NCBI GenBank assembly: GCA_039586365.1
Contig: JBDHKN010000042.1
Span: forward strand, 1 to 64,000
Length of the DNA: 64,000 nucleotides
Source of the DNA: Gemmatimonadota bacterium
Lineage (GTDB): Bacteria; Gemmatimonadota; Gemmatimonadetes; Gemmatimonadales; GWC2-71-9
Direction: 5' to 3'
Below are positions 213 to 57,979 of the stretch, piece by piece. The translations under genes were made by a program, and so were the position numbers. The notes beneath the pieces were generated by a model that saw nothing but the letters and a program-made list of their open reading frames with translations, was not told where the DNA came from and did not search any database. Positions within the stretch are counted from its first letter, which is position 1; each line of letters starts with the position of its first letter.

Positions 213-250
213 GGCTCCCGGCTCCCGGCTCCCGGCTCCCCGCTCTCGGC
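213..250. repeat. 7-bp tandem array (GGCTCCC)4 plus CGCTCTC
   Basis: Read directly; lies just downstream of the ADOP permease native stop codon. Confidence 0.9.
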
Positions 251-3377: not shown

Positions 3378-3385
3378 TGTTAGTA

Positions 3386-3597
3386 AATGGCGGCAAAAGG
3401 GCAGTAGAGGTCGGCAAAGGGCGGTACAAGGGCAGTAAAGGGCGGTAAGGGATGGAAGGGGAGCTTTGCGACCACAGGCAAATCGTCTTTGCGACTAGAG
3501 ACTCACGTTCTCCGTCCGACTCGCAAAATGCGTGGCGTTGCAGCAGGACGGTGAAAATGGTGAGGGACGGTGAAGGACGGTGAGGGACGATGGAGGT
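3386..3597. repeat. Two blocks of the degenerate 10-bp repeat (3386-3460 and 3545-3597) around a unique spacer
   Basis: Units such as gggcagtaga, gggcggtaca, gggcagtaaa, gggcggtaag, ggacggtgaa and ggacggtgag. Confidence 0.75.
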
Positions 3598-5164: not shown

Positions 5165-6553
5165 TCAATTCAAGTGCGCATTGACAATGGGCATCCACTG
5201 CCACACTCCCTCGTTGTTGCCCGCGTAGTTCAACAGCCCAATTTGCACGCCGTGCAACTCGCGGGCTCGATTGTACAGTCCGATGGTGAGCCCGCGTTGG
5301 ACTCCTTGAATGTTATTGTACCCGGCAATGGCAAATCCCGTCAGCGAGCGGCGTGCCTTAGTCCGGATACCGGCGATGATCAGCCCTTCCAGGCGCCTGC
5401 TCTCCACCTTGTAGCCGCCCACCGCCAATCCCCTCATCATGCCCTCCGCATGCACCGCCCCCGCACTCAACGCGATGCCGCTGATTCTCCGCGAGGCTAC
5501 CACCGCCAACCCCCCGATACCTATACCAGTCATATCGCCGTTGACAACTGAAGCAAGGCCTCCCACCAGCAAGCCAGTGGCCCTGCCGTTAACCACTGTG
5601 GCGAGTCCACCCACGTGGAGTCCCACCGCATCTCGATTATGCACAGTGGCCAACCCACCCACCGAGGCACCGGTGGTAGCTCCGTTGACCACGGAGGCCA
5701 GTCCCCCGACGGACAGACCTTCAAAGTCCTCACCTATCACGGACGCAAGACCACCAACACCAATTCCATGGAGCGATCCGTCGGCTACGGTGGCCAGGCC
5801 GCCCAGGCCCACTCCTGCCATGTCACCCTCAGTGACCAACGCCAGGCCACCGACACCCATCCCCCGCATGTTGCCATTCGATACTGCGGCAAGACCACCG
5901 ACACTAATGCCATGCACGTGGCCGTTGGTGACCGTAGCCAACCCTCCTACGGCGAGGCCATGGAATGACCCGTTGGACACAGTAGCCAGGCCGCCCACGC
6001 CGATCCCGTCCATGTCACCGTTGGTCACCGTTGCGAGACCGCCAACTGCTATCCCTGCCAGATCGTTGTTGACGACAGTGGCCAGGCCCCCGATAGCTAT
6101 ACCGGCCAGATCGCCCTCAGCCGCGACGGTGGCCAGGCCGCCAACGGCTACTCCATTGAGGGAATGCGTCACGACGGACGCGAGAGCGCCCACGCTGAGC
6201 CCATTGAGGCACTTTGCCTCAACTCCCAGGCCCAGCGCGATGCCATTGATCTGCCCCGCCTGCGGCCCAACCAGCCCCACCGCAAGGCCATTGACGACGG
6301 CGTCGTAGTTGTCCCGCGCCTTCCAGAAGGTCAGGTTGATCCCATTCACCCACTGCAGATCATCGTCCCGGAAGTTGATCCTGAGGCCGTTGATGCCGCG
6401 CGAGTTACCGACGCTGATCCCATAATCGTGTACCGCGATATTGAGCGCGCGGTGGGTGGGGTGGCCACGACGTCCCTCATCCTGCGCCAGTGTACTGTGC
6501 GGAATTGCCAGCGCCGCCAGGATCACGGCGCACGACAGACTGGTATTGGACAC
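5165..6553 (-). CDS. Secreted Gly-rich 16-aa repeat protein (LA_2272-like surface repeat)
   Basis: Signal-peptide-like N-terminus; about 16 repeats of GxxVGGLAxVxxGxxx; C-terminal GVQIGLLNYA...PIVN. Confidence 0.8.
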   Translation of the reverse strand: MSNTSLSCAVILAALAIPHSTLAQDEGRRGHPTHRALNIAVHDYGISVGNSRGINGLRINFRDDDLQWVNGINLTFWKARDNYDAVVNGLAVGLVGPQAGQINGIALGLGVEAKCLNGLSVGALASVVTHSLNGVAVGGLATVAAEGDLAGIAIGGLATVVNNDLAGIAVGGLATVTNGDMDGIGVGGLATVSNGSFHGLAVGGLATVTNGHVHGISVGGLAAVSNGNMRGMGVGGLALVTEGDMAGVGLGGLATVADGSLHGIGVGGLASVIGEDFEGLSVGGLASVVNGATTGASVGGLATVHNRDAVGLHVGGLATVVNGRATGLLVGGLASVVNGDMTGIGIGGLAVVASRRISGIALSAGAVHAEGMMRGLAVGGYKVESRRLEGLIIAGIRTKARRSLTGFAIAGYNNIQGVQRGLTIGLYNRARELHGVQIGLLNYAGNNEGVWQWMPIVNAHLN

Positions 6554-12577: not shown

Positions 12578-12840
12578 GAGCCAAACATGCCGGTCGCTAG
12601 GGCGTGATTCGGCTTGGGTACTTTCGGCTGTGCTTCTTGGGCACGGCCCGAATCCCCAACTGAGAACCTCTGGCCCACGCGGGGCTCTATTCAGAATGAT
12701 TCGAGAACCCGGCTGTATCCTCTGCAACGCACCGAAACCGAGTAACCCCCCGGACGGACAGTGGAGAATACACTCATGACCAGATTTCCCGAGCGAGAAG
12801 ACGAAGTAGCTGTCCTCGCAGAAGGGCCCATCGAGGGACA

Positions 12841-12895
12841 CAGTCCCTCACCGTCCCTCAGCATGCCTCACCGTATCTCCCACTCCCCTTGCCCC
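12841..12895. repeat. 10-bp repeat family, reverse orientation
   Basis: cagtccctca ccgtccctca gcatgcctca ccgtatctcc, complementary to the tgagggacgg units at 3560-3590. Confidence 0.6.
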
Positions 12896-17261: not shown

Positions 17262-17380
17262 CCGGGAGCGGGGAGCAAGGAGCGGAGAGCTGGGAGCGGG
17301 AAGCCTTAGGTGGTATGTAGCCCACGTGATCACAACGTCCACCGGCCCGCTCCCTGCTCCCCGCTCTCAGCTCCCGGTTA
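17259..17380. repeat. Inverted pair of 7-bp NRRGAGC arrays (empty form)
   Basis: Left arm cgggagc ggggagc aaggagc ggagagc tgggagc gggaagc; right arm is complementary; outer 11 bp TAACCGGGAGC/GCTCCCGGTTA are perfectly inverted. Confidence 0.88.
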
Positions 17381-19104: not shown

Positions 19105-19680
19105 ATGACTCTACGACGCTGCGAGTGGTGTCTGGGAAACGACTTGATGATCGCCTACCACGATGACGAATGGGGCGTTCCGGTGCACGACGACAGGAGG
19201 CTATTCGAGCACCTCGTGCTCGACGGTTTCCAGGCTGGCTTGAGCTGGTCTACCATCCTCAACAAACGTGAGAACTTCAGGGCAGCCTTCGACGACTTCG
19301 CGGCTGAGAGAATCGCGCGGTACACCAAGCACAAGATCGAGCGGCTGTTGACAAACCCAGGTATCGTGCGTAATCGCCAAAAAGTGCTGGCCGCCGTGTC
19401 CAATGCCAGGGCATTTCTCGAACTCCAACAGGAGTTCGGGACGTTTGATTCCTTTATCTGGCAGTTCGTCGGAGGCCAGCCCAAACAGAACCGCTGGAGA
19501 TCGCTGCGGCAGCTTCCGGCCAAGACGAAACAGTCGGAGGCCATGAGCAAGTCGCTCAAAGAGCGCGGTTTCAAGTTCGTGGGATCCACCATCTGCTACG
19601 CGTTCATGCAAGCGGCGGGGATGGTGAATGATCATGTCGTGAGCTGCTTCAGATACCGGGAGCTGGGAGCGGAGAGCTGA
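19105..19680 (+). CDS. tag: DNA-3-methyladenine glycosylase I
   Basis: RCEW, YHDDEWG, FQAGLSWSTIL, IVRNRQK and GFKFVGSTICYAFMQAAGMVNDH motifs. Confidence 0.97.
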   Translation: MTLRRCEWCLGNDLMIAYHDDEWGVPVHDDRRLFEHLVLDGFQAGLSWSTILNKRENFRAAFDDFAAERIARYTKHKIERLLTNPGIVRNRQKVLAAVSNARAFLELQQEFGTFDSFIWQFVGGQPKQNRWRSLRQLPAKTKQSEAMSKSLKERGFKFVGSTICYAFMQAAGMVNDHVVSCFRYRELGAES

Positions 19681-19748
19681 GAACCGTGACGCAAGGACGT
19701 GCGAACTAGGAAGGGCTCGGCTCCCTGCTCCCCGCTCTCGGCTCCCCG
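19657..19748. repeat. Inverted pair of 7-bp arrays (empty form) between convergent genes
   Basis: cgggagc tgggagc ggagagc tgagaac, a 30-nt spacer, then gctccct gctcccc gctctcg gctcccc. Confidence 0.85.
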
Positions 19749-29003: not shown

Positions 29004-29056
29004 CGGGAGCTGAGAGCGGGGAGCAGGGAGCGGGCCCCCCGCTCCCCGCTCGCTGC
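29004..29056. repeat. Inverted pair of 7-bp arrays (empty form) between convergent genes
   Basis: cgggagc tgagagc ggggagc agggagc ggg, then cccc gctcccc gctc. Confidence 0.85.
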
Positions 29057-30553
29057 TCACGGCTCCCGCCGCACGACCGGCGGTTTCTGATCCAACGGGA
29101 TCGGTGATTCGTAGGCTTTTCCTCCGGTCTGCTCCAAGAAGAACGCTCGAGCCTGCTCCAAGAGAGACGGGTCTGTCAGCATGTCGACCGCGGTGAGGGC
29201 GATCACCTTGGCGGCCACATTCGCCCCGCGAATGGCCCCCTCGGTACCGTGCGAGGCTGAGGCCGCCCAGCTATGCCACGGGATATCCGCAGCAGCAGTG
29301 GTCACAGTGAATCCCACGGTCGGAGTTATGTAGCTCACCTCAGCTACGTCAGTGGACCCACCACTGGGGGGCTCAGGCTCGTCTGCCAGTGGCTTGATCT
29401 TCACGTCGAGGCCCTGCTGCTCGATCTGGAGGGATTCCTGGAGGTGCTTGGCAAACGACTGATCTTCTGCGGTGAACGGAGGCGCTCCGACCAGCTCGAA
29501 GTTCCGTTGCGCCACCTCCTGTAATGGCCTGTTCAGCAGCGTTTCGTGTACCCCGGTGATGAGCGTCACCTTGTGGGTCGTGCGCGTCGCCATGGCAGCG
29601 CCCTCAGCGATCTTCAGGATCCAATCGTAGTACGCCTGGACCGACTCACGGTTCACGTCGCGCACATAGTACCATACCTTGGCGTACTCGGGCACGACGT
29701 TGGGAGCTTCTCCGGCCGAGGGCATCACATAGTGGATGCGAGCGGTGGGCTTGACGTGCTCCCGCATCATGTTCACGCCGTAGTTCATCATCTCGATCGC
29801 GTCCAGGGCACTCCTGCCGTTCCACGGGTCGGCGGAGGCGTGGGCTGCCTGCCCGAAGAACTCGACCGTGAAGTTGTTCAAAGCTCGACCGGGTTGATTG
29901 CGGACGCTGTTCTCAAGCCCGGGATGCCACTCGATTGCTGCATCCAGATCATCGAAAACCCCGGCCTTGGCCATGTACACCTTCCCCACGACCGTCTCTT
30001 CCGCCGGAGTGCCATAGAGCCGCACTGTTCCACTCAAGTTGTGGCCCGCGATCACTCGTTTCAGGATCATCGCAGCGCCCACTGAAGCGGCGCCGAAGAG
30101 GTTGTGACCACATCCCTGACCGCTGCTCAACCCATCAACACGCGGCGCTTTCCGGGGAACCACCGCGTTCCCCACTCCCGGAAGCGCATCGTACTCCGCA
30201 AGTATGCCGATTATCGGATGACCACTGCCGTACGATGCCATGAACGCTGTGGGCATTTCCGCCACATCGCGTTCCACCGTGAATCCATCCTGCTCGAGCA
30301 CATTGGCCAGGAATTCGGCCGACCGGTACTCGAGCATCGCCGTCTCAGAGAAGTCCCACAGGGTTTGTGACATGCGGCCGATTTCCGCCGCCACCTCATC
30401 CGCTGCTGACAGTGCCGTGCTCTTCTCTCGCGACAGCCTCTGGGCGGACATGGCGCCACTGATCGTCAGGCTGAAGAGCATTAGGGCCGGGACTACTCGG
30501 AACAAGTGCGATATGACACTGTGTTGGGTGACTCCGTGGTATTGGGACATCAT
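29057..30553 (-). CDS. M20 amidohydrolase, AbgB-like, second paralog
   Basis: AEYDALPG, GCGHNLFG, GTPAEE and GSTDVAEVS motifs; start uncertain. Confidence 0.9.
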   Translation of the reverse strand: MMSQYHGVTQHSVISHLFRVVPALMLFSLTISGAMSAQRLSREKSTALSAADEVAAEIGRMSQTLWDFSETAMLEYRSAEFLANVLEQDGFTVERDVAEMPTAFMASYGSGHPIIGILAEYDALPGVGNAVVPRKAPRVDGLSSGQGCGHNLFGAASVGAAMILKRVIAGHNLSGTVRLYGTPAEETVVGKVYMAKAGVFDDLDAAIEWHPGLENSVRNQPGRALNNFTVEFFGQAAHASADPWNGRSALDAIEMMNYGVNMMREHVKPTARIHYVMPSAGEAPNVVPEYAKVWYYVRDVNRESVQAYYDWILKIAEGAAMATRTTHKVTLITGVHETLLNRPLQEVAQRNFELVGAPPFTAEDQSFAKHLQESLQIEQQGLDVKIKPLADEPEPPSGGSTDVAEVSYITPTVGFTVTTAAADIPWHSWAASASHGTEGAIRGANVAAKVIALTAVDMLTDPSLLEQARAFFLEQTGGKAYESPIPLDQKPPVVRREP

Positions 30554-40822: not shown

Positions 40823-40866
40823 CTGAAAGACGGTAAAGGGCGGGAGAAGGCGGTAGAAGGCGGTAC
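40823..40866. repeat. 10-bp repeat family copy
   Basis: agacggtaaa gggcgggaga aggcggtaga aggcggtac directly after a stop codon. Confidence 0.7.
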
Positions 40867-41074: not shown

Positions 41075-41283
41075 CTCGAATCGCCAATTCCTGGCTTCGA
41101 ATCGCCGACTCGAGGCCTCGAATCGTCGAGTCGAGCCCTCGATTAGCTGATTCGATCCATAGAGCAACCCAATCGAGAGGTCGAATCGTCGATACGAACC
41201 GCAGGGCAGCCGAATCTGAGGTCGAATCGCCGAGTTGAGGCGTCGAATCGTCGACTCGAGGCCTCGAATGACCGACTCGAGAT
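41075..41283. repeat. Degenerate 21-bp tandem repeat, about 10 units (STCGAATCGYCGACTCGAGGC)
   Basis: Clear units begin at 41075, 41096, 41117, 41138, 41180, 41221, 41242 and 41263. Confidence 0.8.
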
Positions 41284-41487: not shown

Positions 41488-41550
41488 CGATTGACGATTG
41501 ACGATTGACGGTTGACGATTTGACGATTTGACGATTTGACGAGTGACGAG
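41488..41550. repeat. 7/8-bp tandem array (TTGACGA / TTTGACGA)
   Basis: cgattgacgattgacgattgacggttgacgatttgacgatttgacgatttgacgagtgacgag. Confidence 0.9.
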
Positions 41551-41846: not shown

Positions 41847-44579
41847 TTGCAATACGCCGTCACACACCCGTTTCCAGAGTCTGCGAGGATCGCGGCCGCA
41901 GGTGCGGTCCTAGCGGCCCTGAGTCTCCTCGTTGCCACTGCGGCTGCAAGCCCCCAGCAGCATTCGGCCAGCAGGCCTGCGGCCGCCAGATCACGGGACG
42001 CAGCAGCAGCCGTGGCTTTCGCCATTCACGCCGAGCCCAGCTCACCCACCCTGGACGGGAAGCTGGACGACCCGGTGTGGCAGGACGCTTTGGCTATCTC
42101 CGGTTTCACTCAAGTCAGGCCAGACGACGGGACCGATCCCACTGAGCGCACCGAGGTGTTCATTACGTACGACGAAGCAGCCCTGTACATCGGCGCTCGA
42201 ATGCACGACAGTGACCCATCTGGCATCGTGGGTCGTCTAGGCCGTCGCGACGGCTTCACTCCGAGTGATTTCTTCTCGGCGGAGATAGACTCGTACCACG
42301 ACCACCGTACGGTGTTCAGCTTCACGGTCAACCCGGCCGGCGTCAGAAGCGACGAGGTCATGACCAATGACGGCCCTCACGGTGACATGTCCTGGGATCC
42401 AGTGTGGGAGGTCGCTACCCGGATCGACTCTTTGGGTTGGGTCGCCGAGCTGAGGATCCCGTTTTCTCAGCTGCGCTTCTCGAGTGCTGCCGAACAGGTG
42501 TGGGGAATCAACTTCAGCCGCAGCATCTTCCGGAAGAATGAGTATGTGCGCTGGAGCTGGGCGCCCAACACGGAGCAGGGCTTCGCGTCCCTGTTCGGTC
42601 ATCTGCAGGGACTGCGCGACATTCCGGCGTCCAGCCGGCTGGAGCTGCTTCCCTACACGGTGGCCACGAGCAATTTCACCGAGGGAGCCGACCGGGCCAA
42701 CCCGTTTGACGACGGTAGCGTCCAAGACCTGACCGGCGGCCTGGACCTCAAATACGGCCTCACCAGCGATCTCACCGTCGACGCGACCTTCAACCCCGAT
42801 TTCGGCCAAGTCGAAGCCGACCCGGCGGTGGTGAACCTGAGTGCCTTCGAGACCTATTTCCAGGAGCGGCGGCCGTTCTTCGTGGAAGGTGCCAACATCT
42901 TCCGGTTCGGGGCCGGCAGCGGAGGGTTCGTGTTCGGCGCACCTCAGCTGTTCTATTCCCGCCGCGTGGGGCGCCAGCCCTCGGAACCGGCGGACGAGCC
43001 GGACGGCTATGTCGACAACCCGACAGCAACCCGCATACTCGGCGCTACGAAGCTGTCTGGTAAGACCGGCAGCTGGTCCATCGGATTGTTGGATGCGCTG
43101 ACGGCTCCCGCACGGGCGAGGGTACAGCTCGAGAACGGCGCCAGAGAAAGCCGACCGGTTGAGCCGCTGGCCAACTATGCGGTCGCCAGCCTACGCAGAG
43201 ATTTTCGGGACGGAGCTACTGGGGTTGGGGCGCTGGCTACTGCGGTCCACCGCAACATCAGTGATGAGATATTCGCGTCGCTCCGTTCCTCGGCATACTC
43301 AGGAGGTGCCGACTTCTTTCACAAGTTCGCCGACAACCAGTTCGCGGTGAACGGCACTATCAGCGCCTCGCACATCATAGGAGATCCCGCTGCGATCACC
43401 GAAGCACAGCATTCCTCAGCCCGCTATTTCCAGCGACCGGATCAAGACTATGTGTCAGTCGACTCTTCAGCCACCTCGATGACCGGATTTGCCGCTTCGA
43501 TGCAATTCGACAAGGTGTCCGGCAACTGGGTCTACGGCACGGACCTGTTCGCATATTCACCGCACTTCGAGGTGAACGATGCTGGCTTTCAAACGGGTGT
43601 CGACCGGATCTTCCACGGAATCCGCCTCACCCGCCGCTGGCTCCAACCCGGCAAGGTGTTCCGCAACTTCAGGATCAACGGGACTTTCGCGCAGCAGTGG
43701 AATTTCGGTGGCACCAACCTGTTCCGTTCACCGTACTTCGGTGTCGGTGGCCAGTTCCGCAACTACTGGAGCTTCAACTTAGGTGGCAGCTACGACTTCA
43801 CCGGCCTCAGCGACAAGATGACACGCGGTGGTCCCCTGATGGAAAGTCCCAGCGGGTGGTCCGCTAATGGCTTCTTGGGAACCGATCACCGCAAGCCAGT
43901 ATCACTGGCCGTGTTTGGTTACTACAGTCGCAACGGCTACGACGGGTGGGGCGGAGACATCGGCACCGAGATCAATATCCGCCCCAAAGGGGCCGTGAAC
44001 CTGAGCCTGTCACCCAGCTTCAACAAGTCGCACGCAATGGGGTTCTACGTCTCCCAGAGCGAGGATACGACTGCCACCGCAACCTTCGGCACGCGCTACC
44101 TGTTCAGCGAACTGGTACAGACCAGCCTGGACATGACGGTGCGGATGGACGTTGCGCTGACGCCCGACCTCTCCATCCAACTCTACGCCCAACCGTTCAT
44201 CGCTGCGGGCGACTACACCGGGTTCAAGGAGTTGGCGCAGCCGAAAACCTTCGATTTCCTGCGCTATGGGACGGATAACGGTTCCACCATCTCATTCGAC
44301 ACCGAGTCGAACGAGTACACCGCCGACCCGGACGGGGACGGACTGGCTGAGCCGATCACGTTCGAGAATCCTGACTTTCGGTTTCGCTCGCTCAGGAGCA
44401 ACCTGGTTGTCAGGTGGGAGTACAAACCCGGGTCAACTGTCTTCCTGGTCTGGAACCACGGGCGCTCGGCGTCCTCAGACGATCCGACTTTCGGTGTGTT
44501 CGATGAGGTCGGCAACCTGTTTGCGGACCAGATGACCAATACGTTCCTGGTGAAGTTCAACTATTGGTTGAGTCTTTGA
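41847..44579 (+). CDS. DUF5916 / CBM9-like outer-membrane protein, second paralog
   Basis: LDGKLDDPVW, GWVAELRIPFSQLRF, NPDFGQVEAD..ERRPFFVEG and VVRWEYKPGS motifs; start uncertain. Confidence 0.9.
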   Translation: MQYAVTHPFPESARIAAAGAVLAALSLLVATAAASPQQHSASRPAAARSRDAAAAVAFAIHAEPSSPTLDGKLDDPVWQDALAISGFTQVRPDDGTDPTERTEVFITYDEAALYIGARMHDSDPSGIVGRLGRRDGFTPSDFFSAEIDSYHDHRTVFSFTVNPAGVRSDEVMTNDGPHGDMSWDPVWEVATRIDSLGWVAELRIPFSQLRFSSAAEQVWGINFSRSIFRKNEYVRWSWAPNTEQGFASLFGHLQGLRDIPASSRLELLPYTVATSNFTEGADRANPFDDGSVQDLTGGLDLKYGLTSDLTVDATFNPDFGQVEADPAVVNLSAFETYFQERRPFFVEGANIFRFGAGSGGFVFGAPQLFYSRRVGRQPSEPADEPDGYVDNPTATRILGATKLSGKTGSWSIGLLDALTAPARARVQLENGARESRPVEPLANYAVASLRRDFRDGATGVGALATAVHRNISDEIFASLRSSAYSGGADFFHKFADNQFAVNGTISASHIIGDPAAITEAQHSSARYFQRPDQDYVSVDSSATSMTGFAASMQFDKVSGNWVYGTDLFAYSPHFEVNDAGFQTGVDRIFHGIRLTRRWLQPGKVFRNFRINGTFAQQWNFGGTNLFRSPYFGVGGQFRNYWSFNLGGSYDFTGLSDKMTRGGPLMESPSGWSANGFLGTDHRKPVSLAVFGYYSRNGYDGWGGDIGTEINIRPKGAVNLSLSPSFNKSHAMGFYVSQSEDTTATATFGTRYLFSELVQTSLDMTVRMDVALTPDLSIQLYAQPFIAAGDYTGFKELAQPKTFDFLRYGTDNGSTISFDTESNEYTADPDGDGLAEPITFENPDFRFRSLRSNLVVRWEYKPGSTVFLVWNHGRSASSDDPTFGVFDEVGNLFADQMTNTFLVKFNYWLSL

Positions 44580-44581
44580 AC

Positions 44582-44637
44582 GGGGAGCAGAGAGCAGAGA
44601 GCGGGGAGCGGGGAGCCGGGAACGGGGAGCAGAGAGC
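44582..44637. repeat. Left arm: eight 7-bp NRRGAGC units
   Basis: ggggagc agagagc agagagc ggggagc ggggagc cgggaac ggggagc agagagc. Confidence 0.92.
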
Positions 44638-44645
44638 GGGGGGTG

Positions 44646-45006
44646 TCAGGTCTTCCTGCGGGATTTCCTGAGCAGTCCGTAGGTAACCGCGATTGTACGA
44701 TCGACAACCGCGGCAAGCTCGTCGAGTCGAGGTTTCGGTAGATACCCTACCTCGGCGGCAACTCGCCGCAAGCACTCGACCTCAGCGGCAGAGCCTAGCG
44801 CGATCGCAAGGTGACGCCGGAACTGAGGCGTCGAACTCAGAGCATGTCCCTCGACCACGTTCGCCTCGACTGAGATGGCGGCGCGCCGAAGCTGATCGAA
44901 CAGCTGCCTGCAGCTAGGACTGTACGATTCGTCTGTGGCCCGGAGTACTCCGACTGTCAAATTCGTGGGCGTGCTGCCAGACGGCGAGACGCTGGTATTG
45001 TTTCAC
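44646..45006 (-). pseudogene. Four-helix-bundle protein (TIGR02436 / 23S rRNA IVP family, Avd-like) with a 1-nt frameshift at about 44960
   Basis: GTG at 45006 gives MKQYQRLAVWQHAHE; removing one T from GAATTTGAC joins it to LTVGVLRAT..DQLRRAAISVEANVVEG..FRRHLAIALGSAAEVE. Confidence 0.88.
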
Positions 45007-45077
45007 CCCTCAACAGTGCCAGGCTGGACCCTACTTCGCAGCACCAATTCGACGTACCGACGGCACATAACCACGCG

Positions 45078-45133
45078 GCTCCCCGCTCCCAGCTCTCTGC
45101 TCTCTGTCCTCCGCTCCCCGCTCCCGGCTCCCC
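45078..45133. repeat. Right arm: eight 7-bp units in inverted orientation
   Basis: gctcccc gctccca gctctct gctctct gtcctcc gctcccc gctcccg gctcccc. Confidence 0.92.
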
Positions 45134-45526
45134 CTACCGCCTCCGCACCGGCTTTACCCTGATCGGGGTCACTATCGGCAGGCCCATCGGGCGTTCCTTG
45201 GGCACCTTCTCACGACCCTGCGCCAAGAGTTGCTCGGCGAAATCGATGCGCTCCTCCACCGACTCCACGAGCTGGGCAGTGCGATACTCCATTTCCGAGA
45301 GCACGCTGTAGACCCGCTCCTCCAGCTCCCCCAGCCGACGGTCCAGCAGGGCTTCGAGGCCACCGCTCCCTCGCTTCTTTTCCCGCAATGCCTTGATACC
45401 GAGCGGGATCGCACTGCCACCGACCAAGATGCCACAGATGAGGACCGGAACCGCCTCATACGCAACAGCGGAGCCGACCAACACACCGCCGATGATCATT
45501 CTGTCCATTATCTGGCGCAGAACCAT
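45134..45526 (-). CDS. Hypothetical membrane-anchored coiled-coil protein
   Basis: Hydrophobic N-terminus, then LEERV..VEERIDFAEQLL. Confidence 0.7.
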   Translation of the reverse strand: MVLRQIMDRMIIGGVLVGSAVAYEAVPVLICGILVGGSAIPLGIKALREKKRGSGGLEALLDRRLGELEERVYSVLSEMEYRTAQLVESVEERIDFAEQLLAQGREKVPKERPMGLPIVTPIRVKPVRRR

Positions 45527-53208: not shown

Positions 53209-55557
53209 ATGATGCCCATACAGACGATGAGTAAGCTGCCACTAGTGATGCTGTGGGCCAGTTCAGGAGTCCTCCAGGGACAGGTCACCGCAACTGACTA
53301 CGCCCGCGCCGAGCAGTTCCTGGGTCGCAACGCCACCATGTTGATAGCCAACGATGGCGTCGCCCCGCACTGGATCGACGGTAGTCGCTTCTGGTACCGC
53401 AACCATAGGTTTGACGGCCACGAGTTCATCCTGGTAGATCCAACCGCCACGACTCGCCGACCGGTGTTCGATCATGCCCGCCTCGCGGCGGCATTGTCCG
53501 TCGCGGCGGATACGGCTTACGAACCGTTCAAGCTGCCGTTCCAGCAATTCGAGTTTCTGGACGGCGAACGCCGCATCCAGTTCGCGGTAGGTGACTCGAT
53601 CCGCTGGACCTGCGAGATCGCCACCACACCATATCACTGCACCGGCCCGGACACGATTCCCGATTCCCCACTCAGCGAAGTCAAGTCACCGGATGGGAAC
53701 TGGGTTGCCTTCGCTCGGGACAACGACCTGTGGCTACGCTCGGTCGCGTCCGGAGAGGAGATACGGTTGAGCGATGACGGGGAGCCTTACTACGGGTATG
53801 CGGTGAACGACCAATGCTGCAACCAGGTCACAGCACCACGGCGGGGGGAGGAGCGCCGGCCCGTGCTGCGCTGGTCTCCCGACTCCCGCCGCATCGCGAC
53901 CCACAAGCTGGACCAACGTGGCGTCGCGGAACTGCACTTGCTCGAGACTGCCACCGGCAGGCCGATCCTACACAGTTATCGCTACGCCCTTCCCGGGGAT
54001 TCAGTCATCCCCACCTTCGACCTGTACGTGTTCGACGTGGCGGCGCGCCAGCAGGTAAAGGTCCAACTCGAGCCGCAGGAAGCGGGGAACACTTCCTGTT
54101 GCGGCCTGATGTCCGACACGGCGTGGAAAGACGTGCACTGGGGTGACGACTCCGACGAGTTGTTCTTCACTCGTGGCCAGCGCGATTTCACCAAGCTCGA
54201 ACTGATGGTGGCGGACGCCGCGACCGGTAGCGCCCGCATGATCCTCGAGGAACGCAGCCCGACATTCGTGGAGACAAGCCTGGCCTACGGCCTTCCCAAC
54301 TGGCGCGTGGTGAACGACAACCAGGAGATCATCTGGTTCTCCGAACGGGACGGCTGGGGTCATCTCTACCTGTTCGACGCAGGCACGGGAGCGCTGAAGA
54401 ACCAGATCACCTCGGGTCCCTGGGTGGTCCTCAGCGTCGTGCACGTCGACGAGGAGCGGCGCCTGGTCTATTTCGTCGGCCTCGGCAGAGAAGCAGATCG
54501 GGACCCCTACTTCCGCCACTTCTATCGTGTTGGTTTCGACGGCTCCGGCCTCACCCTGCTCACGCCTGAAGACGCCGATCACGACATCCAAGCCGCGCCG
54601 TCCGGCCGCTACTTCGTGGACACGTACTCCCGCCGGGATACGATCCCGACCACGGTGGTTCGTGGCACTGATGGCAGGGTCCTCCAGACGTTGGAGCTTG
54701 GTGACGTCTCGCCACTGCTCGCGGCGGGTTGGCAGTGGCCAGTGCCGTTTACCGTGAAGGCACGCGACGGCGTGACCGACCTGTACGGGCTGCTGTTCTT
54801 CCCGTCCGACTTCGACCCGGAGCGTCGCTACCCGGTTGTTGACTACGTTTATCCCGGTCCCCAGATCGGCCCCATCGGATTCCGCAGCTTCACCGTAAAC
54901 GCGCGGGGTAACGCCCACGCTCTGGCCGAGCTGGGGTTCATCGTGTTTGCCATCGACGCCATGGGCACGCCGGTGCGTTCCAAGGCCTTTCACGACACCT
55001 ACTTCGGCAACATGGGCGACAACGGAATTCCGGACCACATCGTGGCTCTGCGGCAGTTGGCGCGCCGCTATCCCCAAATGGATTTGGATCGGGTGGGCAT
55101 CTTCGGACACTCCGGTGGCGGCTTTGCCTCAACCGACGCTATCCTGAGGTATCCTGACTTCTTCAAGGTTGCCGTGTCTTCCGCCGGCAACCACGACAAC
55201 AGGAGTTACGACTACACATGGGGCGAGAAGTATCAAGGGGTGCTCGAAAAGAACGAAAATGGCGGCGACAACTTCGATTCTCAGGCCAATCAGAACCTAG
55301 CAGAGAACCTCGAGGGGAAGCTGCTGCTGATGTACGGGACGTTGGATGACAACGTGCATCCCAATGCCACATTATTGGTGATCGACGAGTTGATCAAGCA
55401 CAACAAGGATTTCGATCTCATTGTGATGCCCAATCGCAACCACGGCTACGCTGCTGATCCCTACGTGACAAGGCGCAGCTGGGACTATTTCGTGAAGCAT
55501 CTGCTGGGAGTCGATCCACCGGTGGAATACCAGATAAGACAGGAATCCGGACGCTAG
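53209..55557 (+). CDS. S9B dipeptidyl-peptidase IV-like serine peptidase
   Basis: Propeller motifs WSPDS and SERDGWGHLY; nucleophile GHSGGG; DDNVHP; NRNHG; start uncertain. Confidence 0.93.
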   Translation: MMPIQTMSKLPLVMLWASSGVLQGQVTATDYARAEQFLGRNATMLIANDGVAPHWIDGSRFWYRNHRFDGHEFILVDPTATTRRPVFDHARLAAALSVAADTAYEPFKLPFQQFEFLDGERRIQFAVGDSIRWTCEIATTPYHCTGPDTIPDSPLSEVKSPDGNWVAFARDNDLWLRSVASGEEIRLSDDGEPYYGYAVNDQCCNQVTAPRRGEERRPVLRWSPDSRRIATHKLDQRGVAELHLLETATGRPILHSYRYALPGDSVIPTFDLYVFDVAARQQVKVQLEPQEAGNTSCCGLMSDTAWKDVHWGDDSDELFFTRGQRDFTKLELMVADAATGSARMILEERSPTFVETSLAYGLPNWRVVNDNQEIIWFSERDGWGHLYLFDAGTGALKNQITSGPWVVLSVVHVDEERRLVYFVGLGREADRDPYFRHFYRVGFDGSGLTLLTPEDADHDIQAAPSGRYFVDTYSRRDTIPTTVVRGTDGRVLQTLELGDVSPLLAAGWQWPVPFTVKARDGVTDLYGLLFFPSDFDPERRYPVVDYVYPGPQIGPIGFRSFTVNARGNAHALAELGFIVFAIDAMGTPVRSKAFHDTYFGNMGDNGIPDHIVALRQLARRYPQMDLDRVGIFGHSGGGFASTDAILRYPDFFKVAVSSAGNHDNRSYDYTWGEKYQGVLEKNENGGDNFDSQANQNLAENLEGKLLLMYGTLDDNVHPNATLLVIDELIKHNKDFDLIVMPNRNHGYAADPYVTRRSWDYFVKHLLGVDPPVEYQIRQESGR

Positions 55558-55639
55558 CACGTCCGGCCCTGAAAGACCGCTTCGGCACCGCGTCGCGGTG
55601 GCACGCCCTAAAGGGCGGGTACCCACAAGGAGTCTCGCG

Positions 55640-57979
55640 ATGACAAACATATCCAGCAGTTCGAGGGATAGCATCTTCGGCCTGACCGGCCTGCTGCTGC
55701 TTTGCGCACCCACTTTTCCCGCCTCAGCCCAGCAGGTGGACTACAACAAGGCCGAGCGGTTTCTGACCTGGCACACGGAACGGATGATCTCGGGGGACGT
55801 GGTGGACCCGAACTGGATGGAAGGCAACAACCGGTTCTGGTATCGCAACAAGATGGGAGAAGGCTACGAGTTCATCCTGGTAGATCCGGTGACGGGAACA
55901 CGAGTGCCTCTGTTCGATCATGTCCGACTAGCCGCTGCCATGTCACTGGCAGCAGACACAGCCTTCATTGCAGAGAAGCTGCCGTTTGAGTCCTTCGAGT
56001 TGTTGCGCGACGAGACCGCTATCGAGTTCACCGCCCATAAGAAACGGTTCGAGTGCGACATCAGAGCCTACAACTGCACCGTCGGCGATACGCTACCAGA
56101 TGACACGCCATTCGTCGAATCGCCGGACGAGCAGTGGGAAGCATTCGTGCACGAGCACAACATGTATGTCAGACCGGCGGGCGGAGGTGACTCCACGCAG
56201 TTGACCACCGATGGTGTCGAGTACTGGTCCTACGGCCTCACCGCGCCGCGACCGAATGATGTCAAGAACAAGCGAGTCCGCAGGCCCAGCATCATCTGGT
56301 CCCCCGACTCCCGGAAGATGGTGGTGGCGCGCAGCGACGAGCGCGACGTCGAGCACATGCACTACATCTCGATGACGCCGCAGCGGCCGGTTCATTACTC
56401 ACAACCCTACGCGCTCCCTGGCGATTCTCTCATTCCCTACCCCGGCTTCCATGTGCTCACACTCGAACCAGACGCGTCTATTTTGCGGGTAGTGAGCAAC
56501 CACGCGGTCGCGGTGGAACCACGCCCGCACCGGATGTACTTGAACGGAACCCCCAGCGATTCCACTTGGAGCGCCGATTCAGATCGCTGCTACGTATCCT
56601 ACGCGACCAGGGGCTCCAAGAGCATCCATCTGGCAGAGATAGCCGCCGCTACGGGTGAGTCACATCTCATCGTCAGTGATTCCAGCAAGACTTTCATCGA
56701 CGAGCTGAGGGCGGGCATGTATGGGGCCAGTTGGCATGTGACGGCAGACGGGAACGACGTTATCTGGTGGTCGGAAGACGATGGTTGGGCACATCTCTAT
56801 CGACTCGACAGGAACGGCACTGTCAAGAACCAGATAACGTCGGGGCCCTGGTTCGTGAGCACCTTGTATCACGTCGACGAAGCACGACGGCAGATCTACT
56901 TCACCGGCCGAGGGCGTGAGTCCGGACGGAACATCTACTTCGCCTATGTCTACAGAGTGAACTTCGACGGCTCCGGACTCACCCTGATTACTCCCGAGGA
57001 CGCCGATCACACGATCCGCTGGTCACCGAGTGGCCGCTTCTTCGTCGACACCTACTCCCGGGTAGAGACAGCGCCGGTAACTGTGGTGAGAGCGGTACCG
57101 GACGGACGCGTCGTGGTGCGTGCTGAGGAGGCAGACATCTCACGGCTGGCGGAGATCGGCTGGAACCCGGCCGAGGTCTTCACGGTCAAGGCACGGGACG
57201 GGGTGACGGACCTGTACGGGCTGATCTACTTCCCGCCGAGCATCGACTCGACCAAAAAGTACCCGATCATCAGTCACATCTACCCCGGTCCGCAAATCGG
57301 GAGCGTGCGGGGTTACAACTTCAAGGGCGGTGGCGAGGATTTTTCACTTGCCCAACTCGGTTTCGTGGTGATTCAGTTGGATCACCTCGGCACGCCATTC
57401 CGATCCAAGGCCTTCCACGACAACTACTACGGCAACTTCACCGACAACGGTATTCCGGATCACGTGACGGCCATCAAGCAGCTCGCCGCGCGTTATCCAT
57501 TCATCGACCTGGATCGGGTAGGGATCTACGGCCACTCGGGCGGCGGCTTCGCATCCACCGACGCCATGCTCCGCTTCCCCGAGTTCTTCAAGGTGGCGGT
57601 ATCGGGAGCGGGTAACCACGACAACCGGAGTTACAACATCTACTGGGCTGAGAAGTACCAGGGTCTGATGGAGCAAGACACGGTAAAGAACAGCGATAAC
57701 TTCGAGGCGTCCGCCAACAAGACCTATGCTGAGAACCTCCAGGGCAAGTTGCTCCTGATGCACGGTGACATGGACGACAACGTGCATCCCGCTATGACGA
57801 TCCAAGTGGTGGATGAATTGATCAAGGCAAACAGGGACTTCGACCTGATCATAGCACCGGACCGCGCCCACGGCTTGAACGAGCCGTATTTCATCCGTCG
57901 CCGCTGGGATTACTTCGTGAGACACCTGCTGGGTGCGGAACCGCCCAAGAACTACGAGATTGTGCGGCCTGAGAACTGA
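55640..57979 (+). CDS. S9B dipeptidyl-peptidase IV-like serine peptidase, tandem paralog
   Basis: GHSGGG, HGDMDDNVHP and DRAHG motifs; signal peptide ending ASA-QQ. Confidence 0.93.
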   Translation: MTNISSSSRDSIFGLTGLLLLCAPTFPASAQQVDYNKAERFLTWHTERMISGDVVDPNWMEGNNRFWYRNKMGEGYEFILVDPVTGTRVPLFDHVRLAAAMSLAADTAFIAEKLPFESFELLRDETAIEFTAHKKRFECDIRAYNCTVGDTLPDDTPFVESPDEQWEAFVHEHNMYVRPAGGGDSTQLTTDGVEYWSYGLTAPRPNDVKNKRVRRPSIIWSPDSRKMVVARSDERDVEHMHYISMTPQRPVHYSQPYALPGDSLIPYPGFHVLTLEPDASILRVVSNHAVAVEPRPHRMYLNGTPSDSTWSADSDRCYVSYATRGSKSIHLAEIAAATGESHLIVSDSSKTFIDELRAGMYGASWHVTADGNDVIWWSEDDGWAHLYRLDRNGTVKNQITSGPWFVSTLYHVDEARRQIYFTGRGRESGRNIYFAYVYRVNFDGSGLTLITPEDADHTIRWSPSGRFFVDTYSRVETAPVTVVRAVPDGRVVVRAEEADISRLAEIGWNPAEVFTVKARDGVTDLYGLIYFPPSIDSTKKYPIISHIYPGPQIGSVRGYNFKGGGEDFSLAQLGFVVIQLDHLGTPFRSKAFHDNYYGNFTDNGIPDHVTAIKQLAARYPFIDLDRVGIYGHSGGGFASTDAMLRFPEFFKVAVSGAGNHDNRSYNIYWAEKYQGLMEQDTVKNSDNFEASANKTYAENLQGKLLLMHGDMDDNVHPAMTIQVVDELIKANRDFDLIIAPDRAHGLNEPYFIRRRWDYFVRHLLGAEPPKNYEIVRPEN

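Follow-up and report, generated by a model that had tools for sequence, protein, structure and literature searches.

Genes of the PF05635 family have been described inside rRNA insertions (bioRxiv 2024.02.27.582315). The helix-45 intervening sequence (IVS) in the 23S rRNA of Coxiella burnetii, which encodes S23p, carries an ORF of this same family, ends in tandem heptamers (GACAGAT) of variable number, and is excised by RNase III (PMC4990558). Genes of the family have also been noted within cas loci (PMC3936711). Avd, the accessory protein of diversity-generating retroelements (DGRs), has a similar fold and is described as a pentameric barrel with RNA lying over it (bioRxiv 2023.10.23.563531).

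Dispersed bacterial repeats form the other background to this work. REPIN/RAYT systems comprise extragenic, gene-less inverted doublets and a low-copy gene with those repeats on both sides, with one repeat family per gene; the REPs are 20- to 40-bp palindromes, and the gene encodes an HUH tyrosine transposase (Bertels and Rainey 2011, PMC3116915). The GGGAATC and GGGGAYT repeats of Xanthomonas and Nostoc are intergenic, contain about four units, place their G-rich strand just after stop codons, and often occur as inverted pairs (70 in Xcc); Rehm et al. report that no regulatory role could be identified for them (PMC4692102). The TAACTGA repeats of Beggiatoaceae are further dispersed heptamer arrays (PMC4679880). 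In the portions of PMC4692102 and PMC4679880 covered here, these repeats are not linked to a gene family or to a mobile element, and term searches returned no mention of a PF05635-family protein in PMC4679880 and no mention in PMC3733652. A search of the open literature, with subscription journals and supplements outside its scope, yielded no description of repeat arms around the PF05635 family outside rRNA.

Here, we analyzed a 64,000-nt stretch of a Gemmatimonadota genome (the window), in which a PF05635 gene is framed by heptamer arms. Two inverted arms of eight heptamers each, one four-helix-bundle gene between them, convergent stop codons on both sides, and three more arm pairs lacking a gene had been reported in the first-pass annotation, and all of these features are confirmed by their coordinates (Table 1). 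The left arm consists of GGGGAGC/AGAGAGC-type units; in the right arm, one of the inverted units is degenerate, and the adjoining TAG occupies positions 45134-45136. A fourth pair of the empty type lies just beyond the window (C73:64001-64095). The supposition that the arms pair into a long stem is supported by the single-stranded DNA fold of 44575-45140, in which they are paired with a z score of -5.2 (0 of 100 shuffles were equally stable), and the RNA duplex of the arms has an energy of -88 kcal/mol on one strand and -95 kcal/mol on the other. The exact symmetry of the arms, to which a meaning had been attached, is incidental: in register, left and right arms are identical at 41 of 56 positions, below the mean of 44.9 for random arrays drawn from the family's units, and a relative's locus (L053) has arms of 8 and 10 units, so that the count of eight plus eight is not conserved.

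Table 1. Positions of the cassette, its host genes, and other arms of the same type in the window
Feature	Position	Strand	Remark
Left host gene, 910 aa, DUF5916 (PF19313)	41847..44579	+	TGA ends 2 nt before left arm
Left arm, eight purine-rich heptamers (NNRGARC)	44582..44637	+	3' side of four-helix-bundle gene
Four-helix-bundle gene, PF05635/TIGR02436	44646..45006	-	GTG 45006 to TGA 44646; one extra base in A-run 44959-44961
-10-like hexamer CACTGT	45013..45018	-	At -12 to -7 from start codon
Cassette-specific upstream motif, consensus YGCG-N3-RWWWYGRTKM	45038..45057	-	Begins at -51; 12.1 bits
Right arm, eight heptamers, purine-rich on minus strand	45078..45133	-	5' side of four-helix-bundle gene; adjoins convergent TAG
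Right host gene, 130 aa	45134..45526	-	No family over cut-off
Empty arm pair, 5+4 units, 51-nt spacer	17263..17376	.	
Empty arm pair, 4+4 units, 35-nt spacer	19657..19747	.	
Empty arm pair, very short spacer	29004..29067	.	Start directly 3' of TAG
Solo arm, 5 units	214..248	-	

The family assignment and the four-helix fold proposed at first pass are borne out by profile scores and by structure. The 104-aa piece at 44649-44960(-) scores 61.3 bits against PF05635 (cut-off, 33.8) and 67 bits against TIGR02436 (cut-off, 24). A model of the L053 protein (pLDDT, 96.5) consists of four long helices and matches Xcc0516 (PDB ID 2GSC) with a TM score of 0.90, 34% identity, and a phmmer E value of 5e-13; TM scores are 0.78 to BT_0352 (2RLD) and 0.76 to DGR Avd (4DWL and 8UB7), to which the identity is only 4 to 9%. 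Residues Q38, R41, N49, E52, S72, and E75 (L053 numbering) are invariant. The 2GSC and 2RLD structures contain five chains each and, by analogy, the window protein may be an Xcc0516-like pentamer. To our knowledge, no catalytic activity is known or has been demonstrated for the PF05635 family.

In the window copy, the GTG start is out of frame with the 104-aa piece, owing to the extra base. This base is missing from a 402-bp contig of run X3 that differs at just two other positions, from a more distant contig of run X1, and from L053, where the gene is an intact 119-aa ORF; we thus attribute the frameshift to misassembly or to a private mutation. The L053 locus is 89.9% identical over 3.1 kb, with the cassette at the same site and in the same orientation, and the cassette has thus been kept in place across 10% nucleotide divergence. 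Between the two loci, the gene has a dN/dS ratio of 0.255, against 0.129 and 0.089 for the host neighbors, which indicates a constraint weaker than theirs but well below 1. The window copy is old and vertically inherited, a degenerate example and not a fresh insertion.

The sequences surveyed at the window site hold no vacated allele. We found no cassette in 11 DUF5916 homologs besides that of the source genome (11 of the 19 fetched were examined) nor, by eye, in 12 homologs of the 130-aa gene besides L053 (29 fetched), the gene pair not being kept in either set. In two orthologs of the 130-aa gene, those of G001 and G003, the stop codon is not followed by an arm, and the window gene order is absent there too; the genus orthologs of both host genes have no arms but, since they lack this order, they are not true empty alleles of the site. 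An excised circle of the window cassette was not found. Among low-depth contigs, one joint skips 484 nt; its sides are 22 nt long, its insert is 18 nt, and we read it as an empty pair belonging to a different site. In one of these relatives (G003, L034), the DUF5916 ortholog is directly followed by the gene that lies just past C73:64001-64095 in the source genome, and the 19.5 kb from window position 44580 to C73:64095 are bounded by GGGAGC arms; the gene order of this relative raises the idea that they might form one composite element.

How does the cassette compare with the described systems? It shares with ORF-bearing 23S IVSs the protein family, a length of ~430 to 550 nt, terminal inverted repeats that form a stem around the ORF, and tandem heptamers at the end. 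The cassette differs in lying between protein-coding genes, with no Rfam match in 44400-45300, and not inside an rRNA gene, and in having its own promoter-like motif and gene-less sister hairpins genome-wide. It also belongs to a lineage nearly devoid of RNase III. Among the 41 related genomes of the order (G000 to G040), which include the source genome (G000; 5.4 Mb, 86% complete), the two RNase III models (PF14622 and PF00636) matched in a single genome, and in 1 of 31 when near-complete genomes were considered; they detected the domain in 8 of 14 controls. G000 itself and 39 of its 40 relatives gave no match. Such near-absence is unusual for bacteria; it takes away the textbook route of IVS excision for this order, separating the element from that mechanism, and the IVS-style excision first imagined for the locus is not supported.

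With REPIN/RAYT systems, the cassette shares the many dispersed, extragenic, gene-less hairpin doublets (16 short pairs in G000 and ~16 in another genome, G038) tied to a low-copy, repeat-flanked gene. Instead of palindromic REPs and a transposase, however, the repeats here are tandem 7- to 10-mers and the gene encodes a 119-aa four-helix bundle; the one PF01797 (Y1/HUH transposase) match of G000 has no arms, and neither do its single GxxExxY and reverse transcriptase (RT) genes. As first noted, no mobilizing enzyme is visible: no transposase, recombinase, or RT was found beside the cassette. An assignment to insertion sequences or miniature inverted-repeat elements was rejected, the cassette having no transposase and no target-site duplication visible by eye. 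The likeness to DGRs lies in the fold that Avd shares with the window family; the window gene has no adjacent DGR RT and no template/variable repeat pair, and the only RT of G000, on another contig, looks like that of a group II intron, to which type we assign it from its 3' sequence.

The association between gene and arms extends far beyond the window. PF05635 is present in 36 of the 41 genomes, with 132 matches; about 120 of these (the weakest fragments were left out) were fetched with ten extra loci, giving 129 distinct loci, 120 of them with full flanks. At an inverted stem score of at least 16, arms frame 94 of these 120 loci, versus 1 of 591 long control genes, all from G000, and 3 of 358 mismatched pairs of upstream and downstream flanks. 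Direct repeats at the same threshold occur at 7 of 120 loci and 5 of 591 controls. Of the 94 armed loci, 81 have their purine-rich arm upstream of the gene, and 26 loci fall below the threshold. The survey of PF05635 genes against control genes, which had been suggested at the outset, thus reveals a strong link. On cyanobacterial plasmids, 6 of the 8 copies examined, from 29 hits, pass the threshold, whereas among 50,697 phage records there was no match. Three of the plasmid copies (L194, L196, and L195) are armed cassettes between cas6 and cas4 and between two ribonucleotide reductase genes; the former location would account for the reported presence of the family in cas loci. Divergent members without arms also exist. 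Four of them, at conserved-looking sites, are candidate domesticated copies (L182 and L185 in G027 and G039; L107 and L171 in G007 and G006), and L102 (G001:C548:37-611) consists of two divergent four-helix-bundle genes, tail to tail, without heptamer arms.

The arm units differ among protein clades. Arms are similar in 1% of protein pairs below 30% identity, in 27% at 60 to 70%, and in 75% at 70 to 80%. On the protein tree, the unit period (7 versus 8 to 10) changes 8 times, against 18.2 after shuffling (0 of 1,000 as low). Among the 27 proteins that share at least 45% identity with the window protein, 10 are flanked by GAGC-type arms, versus 1 of 102 others; the pattern was written after the arms had been seen, and one of the ten hits (L278) lies beyond the arms belonging to the gene. 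Across all pairs, proteins and arms correlate weakly (Spearman, 0.13; Mantel, 4 of 999 permutations), kin not being independent, and such a correlation would arise from co-inheritance alone. At the sequence level, then, the unit follows the protein clade, which shows co-inheritance and, alone, does not show recognition.

In the source genome, arrays of the window unit type number 86, versus 2 in one mononucleotide shuffle. Array pairs within 1.5 kb are always in the purine-then-pyrimidine order (18 pairs; 0 in reverse order); 16 of these 18 GGGAGC pairs are short and empty, one holds the window gene, and one spans an unrelated stretch. Intergenic arrays lie with their purine end at most 20 nt from a stop codon in 31 of 61 cases and with their other, inner end in 3 of 61, as computed with our own gene caller. 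Arms thus also follow the stops of arbitrary genes, so that lying next to a stop characterizes the repeat family and does not single out the cassette. The first-pass annotation had named this outcome as one that would count against its reading, and on this point its reservation was partly justified; another such outcome, a lack of enrichment of arms around family genes, did not materialize.

Heptamer units vary between genomes, and several unit families can coexist in one. The second PF05635 gene of G000 is framed by TTGACGA, so that both of its PF05635 genes have arms from the genome's two main heptamer families. A custom profile run over six frames found no further degenerate family copies in G000, and the inner ends of its empty spacers showed no clear sharing with the window cassette. 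GGGAGC arrays are also abundant in three genomes in which no matching filled cassette was found (G006, with 87 matches and 93% completeness, G001, and G007). Two TTGACGA-armed stretches of ~340 bp in G000 (C43:71176-71596 and C50:49228-49601) are 73% identical to each other over 90 bp and share a 27-bp piece by the arm; they contain no detectable family ORF, their interiors have no significant match to the PF05635 family, and they may represent cassettes that have decayed or else non-coding cargo.

Bare, empty, and filled alleles coexist at one convergent junction, picked out by flank clustering, between guaA and a gene that we take to be PTS EIIA-like. In a tally by eye, 22 of 30 loci keep the same downstream gene; of these, 11 are bare (G000 among them), 5 contain an empty hairpin, 4 are filled, 1 is ambiguous, and 1 contains another gene. 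Each of the five empty hairpins has its own unit. The four filled cassettes, one with weak arms, lie two in each orientation, and in three of them the proteins are 28 to 34% identical and the flanks 70 to 78% identical. Many related cassettes occupy junctions conserved across genera. Of 64 shared-flank matches, 60 agree in orientation; the other four all involve one distant protein (L132). The comparison of filled and empty alleles in relatives, also proposed beforehand, was productive at the guaA junction and not at the window site.

The genome G038 contains 65 matches to the arm followed by GGTWCC and none to the reversed pattern; ~16 of them form short, near-perfect palindromic pairs. Its filled cassette L157, whose protein is the closest to the window protein apart from L053 (64% identity), has the same inner ends as the empty hairpins of that genome. 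As judged from these sequences, the shared ends are the best sign that filled cassettes may give rise to empty hairpins and that these reach new junctions. The early suggestion that empty pairs are non-autonomous or vacated sites is thus favored by the three guaA states and by G038, while no vacated allele of the window site was found. By eye, no target-site duplication was visible at the ends of the G038 hairpins. In the same genome, GGGAGC-GGTACC arms lie on both sides of one gene, presumably ribosomal protein L21-like (L263; G038:C99:21794-22273).

The cassettes also share a promoter-like region. The motif YGCG-N3-RWWWYGRTKM begins at -50 or -51 in 53 of the 69 cassettes with an assignable start. 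A -10-like site just before the start is present in 45 of 69 cassettes versus 108 of 1,659 G000 genes, and a Shine-Dalgarno sequence in 6 of 69 versus 517 of 1,659. Only 7 of the 1,659 G000 upstream regions score above 8 bits for the motif, for which the leave-one-out median of the cassettes is 8.7. This arrangement may represent a leaderless promoter carried by the cassette, together with an operator upstream of it, and in the window the CACTGT hexamer suggests that the transcript would be leaderless.

Considering the anatomy, the gene-arm association, the clade-specific units, the three allele states at one junction, and the inner ends shared in one genome, we infer mobility and a role for the protein. 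The cassette is real and old, and the element to which it belongs is widespread and, it seems, undescribed. We lean, by a little, toward the reading that the cassette is the gene-bearing member of a REPIN-like family of selfish hairpins without a known transposase, whose protein would recognize its own arms and help hairpins to be copied into positions immediately following stop codons. The protein would form an Xcc0516-like pentamer, which would bind its cognate arms as a folded single strand, of DNA or of RNA, and, either unaided or together with host enzymes, would let hairpins seed new gene junctions. Gene-less pairs would then be non-autonomous deletion derivatives, and solo arms would be decay products. 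More tentatively, and with some doubt, we extend this proposal to a class of mobile DNA without a known transposase, in which an Avd-fold pentamer would recognize its own periodic arms on folded single strands and seed hairpins after stops; the heptamer arrays of many phyla might descend from it as non-autonomous offspring, ORF-bearing 23S IVSs might be copies inserted into rRNA, and the DGR Avd might be a recruited relative.

A role in host regulation is a rather unlikely alternative, albeit one that several observations would suit. The arms would be domesticated RNA elements of the host, serving after stop codons as bidirectional terminators, stability hairpins, or G-rich structures, and the pentamer a repeat-binding regulator, its own gene framed by its sites for autoregulation, movement having ceased. 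The proximity of the arms, as opposed to their inner ends, to stop codons agrees with this, as do the same polarity reported for the GGGAATC and GGGGAYT repeats (PMC4692102), the purifying selection on and stable position of the window cassette, the junctions conserved across genera, and the conserved promoter-like motif. However, the units differ between genomes and several families coexist in one, the hairpin is dispensable at the guaA junction, which is bare in half of the 22 genomes, neither strand folds better across cassettes (38 versus 48 of 94), and Rehm et al. could identify no regulatory role (PMC4692102). We consider it improbable that the gene is passive cargo, riding between the arms for its own benefit while a separate, unlinked enzyme, or else replication slippage and template switching, spreads the hairpins. 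In favor of this, the family has no known enzyme motif, arrays have survived with no matching gene in G006, G001, and G007, arms turn over through unit gain and loss, and the two TTGACGA-armed stretches hold related DNA without a detectable family ORF. Yet a random passenger would not be expected to be armed at 94 of 120 loci across two phyla, and the 18 GGGAGC pairs of G000 include, besides the 16 empty ones and the window gene, just one unrelated stretch.

Excision at the mRNA level, with read-through transcripts forming the stem and RNase III cutting the cassette out as in ORF-bearing 23S IVSs, would draw on the stability of the stem and on the Coxiella IVS, which is excised by RNase III, ends in heptamers, and carries an ORF of the same family (PMC4990558). 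We find it very unlikely, as RNase III was found in 1 of 41 genomes and PF05635 in 36, the site lies between convergent stops with no downstream cistron needing rescue, and Rfam gave no match. We give still less credence to an invertible switch, in which recombination between the inverted arms would flip the gene with its promoter. A 239-bp contig of run X1 (depth, 5.1) does lead from the 3' end of DUF5916 through ~14 units into 36 unique bases from the upstream side of the gene, oriented the opposite way, and both orientations are found at the guaA junction; but a single short contig through a repeat may be an assembly chimera, a contig of run X2 ends within the arm, the L053 orientation is that of the window, and nearly all shared-flank matches keep theirs.

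The selfish-hairpin reading would link two long-open questions, the role of the very large S23p/IVP family and the origin of dispersed bacterial heptamer arrays and, if true, would explain these long-puzzling repeats. It is made directly testable by the match of clade to unit, by the young hairpin family of G038, and by the three-state guaA junction; the window locus is valuable as an entry point to the element family.

Other repeats were observed in the window. An inverted pair of arrays with a 21-bp (3 x 7) period, of the CTCGAATCGCCGACTCGAGGC type, lies at 41075-41281 with 66 nt between them, and similar arrays are found in L066. Further repeat families, made of 10-mers (GGGACGGTGA and AAAGGGCGGT) and TTGACGA heptamers, occur at 101-145, 3382-3448, 3545-3589, 12839-12874, 40827-40865, and 41488-41549; a filled cassette with 10-mer arms was not found in G000 and is present in G003 and G004. 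Repeats with a 48-bp period at 5505-6190 are apparently coding, and tandem paralogous genes ~2.4 kb apart, with blocks 71 to 82% identical, occupy 53386-57790.
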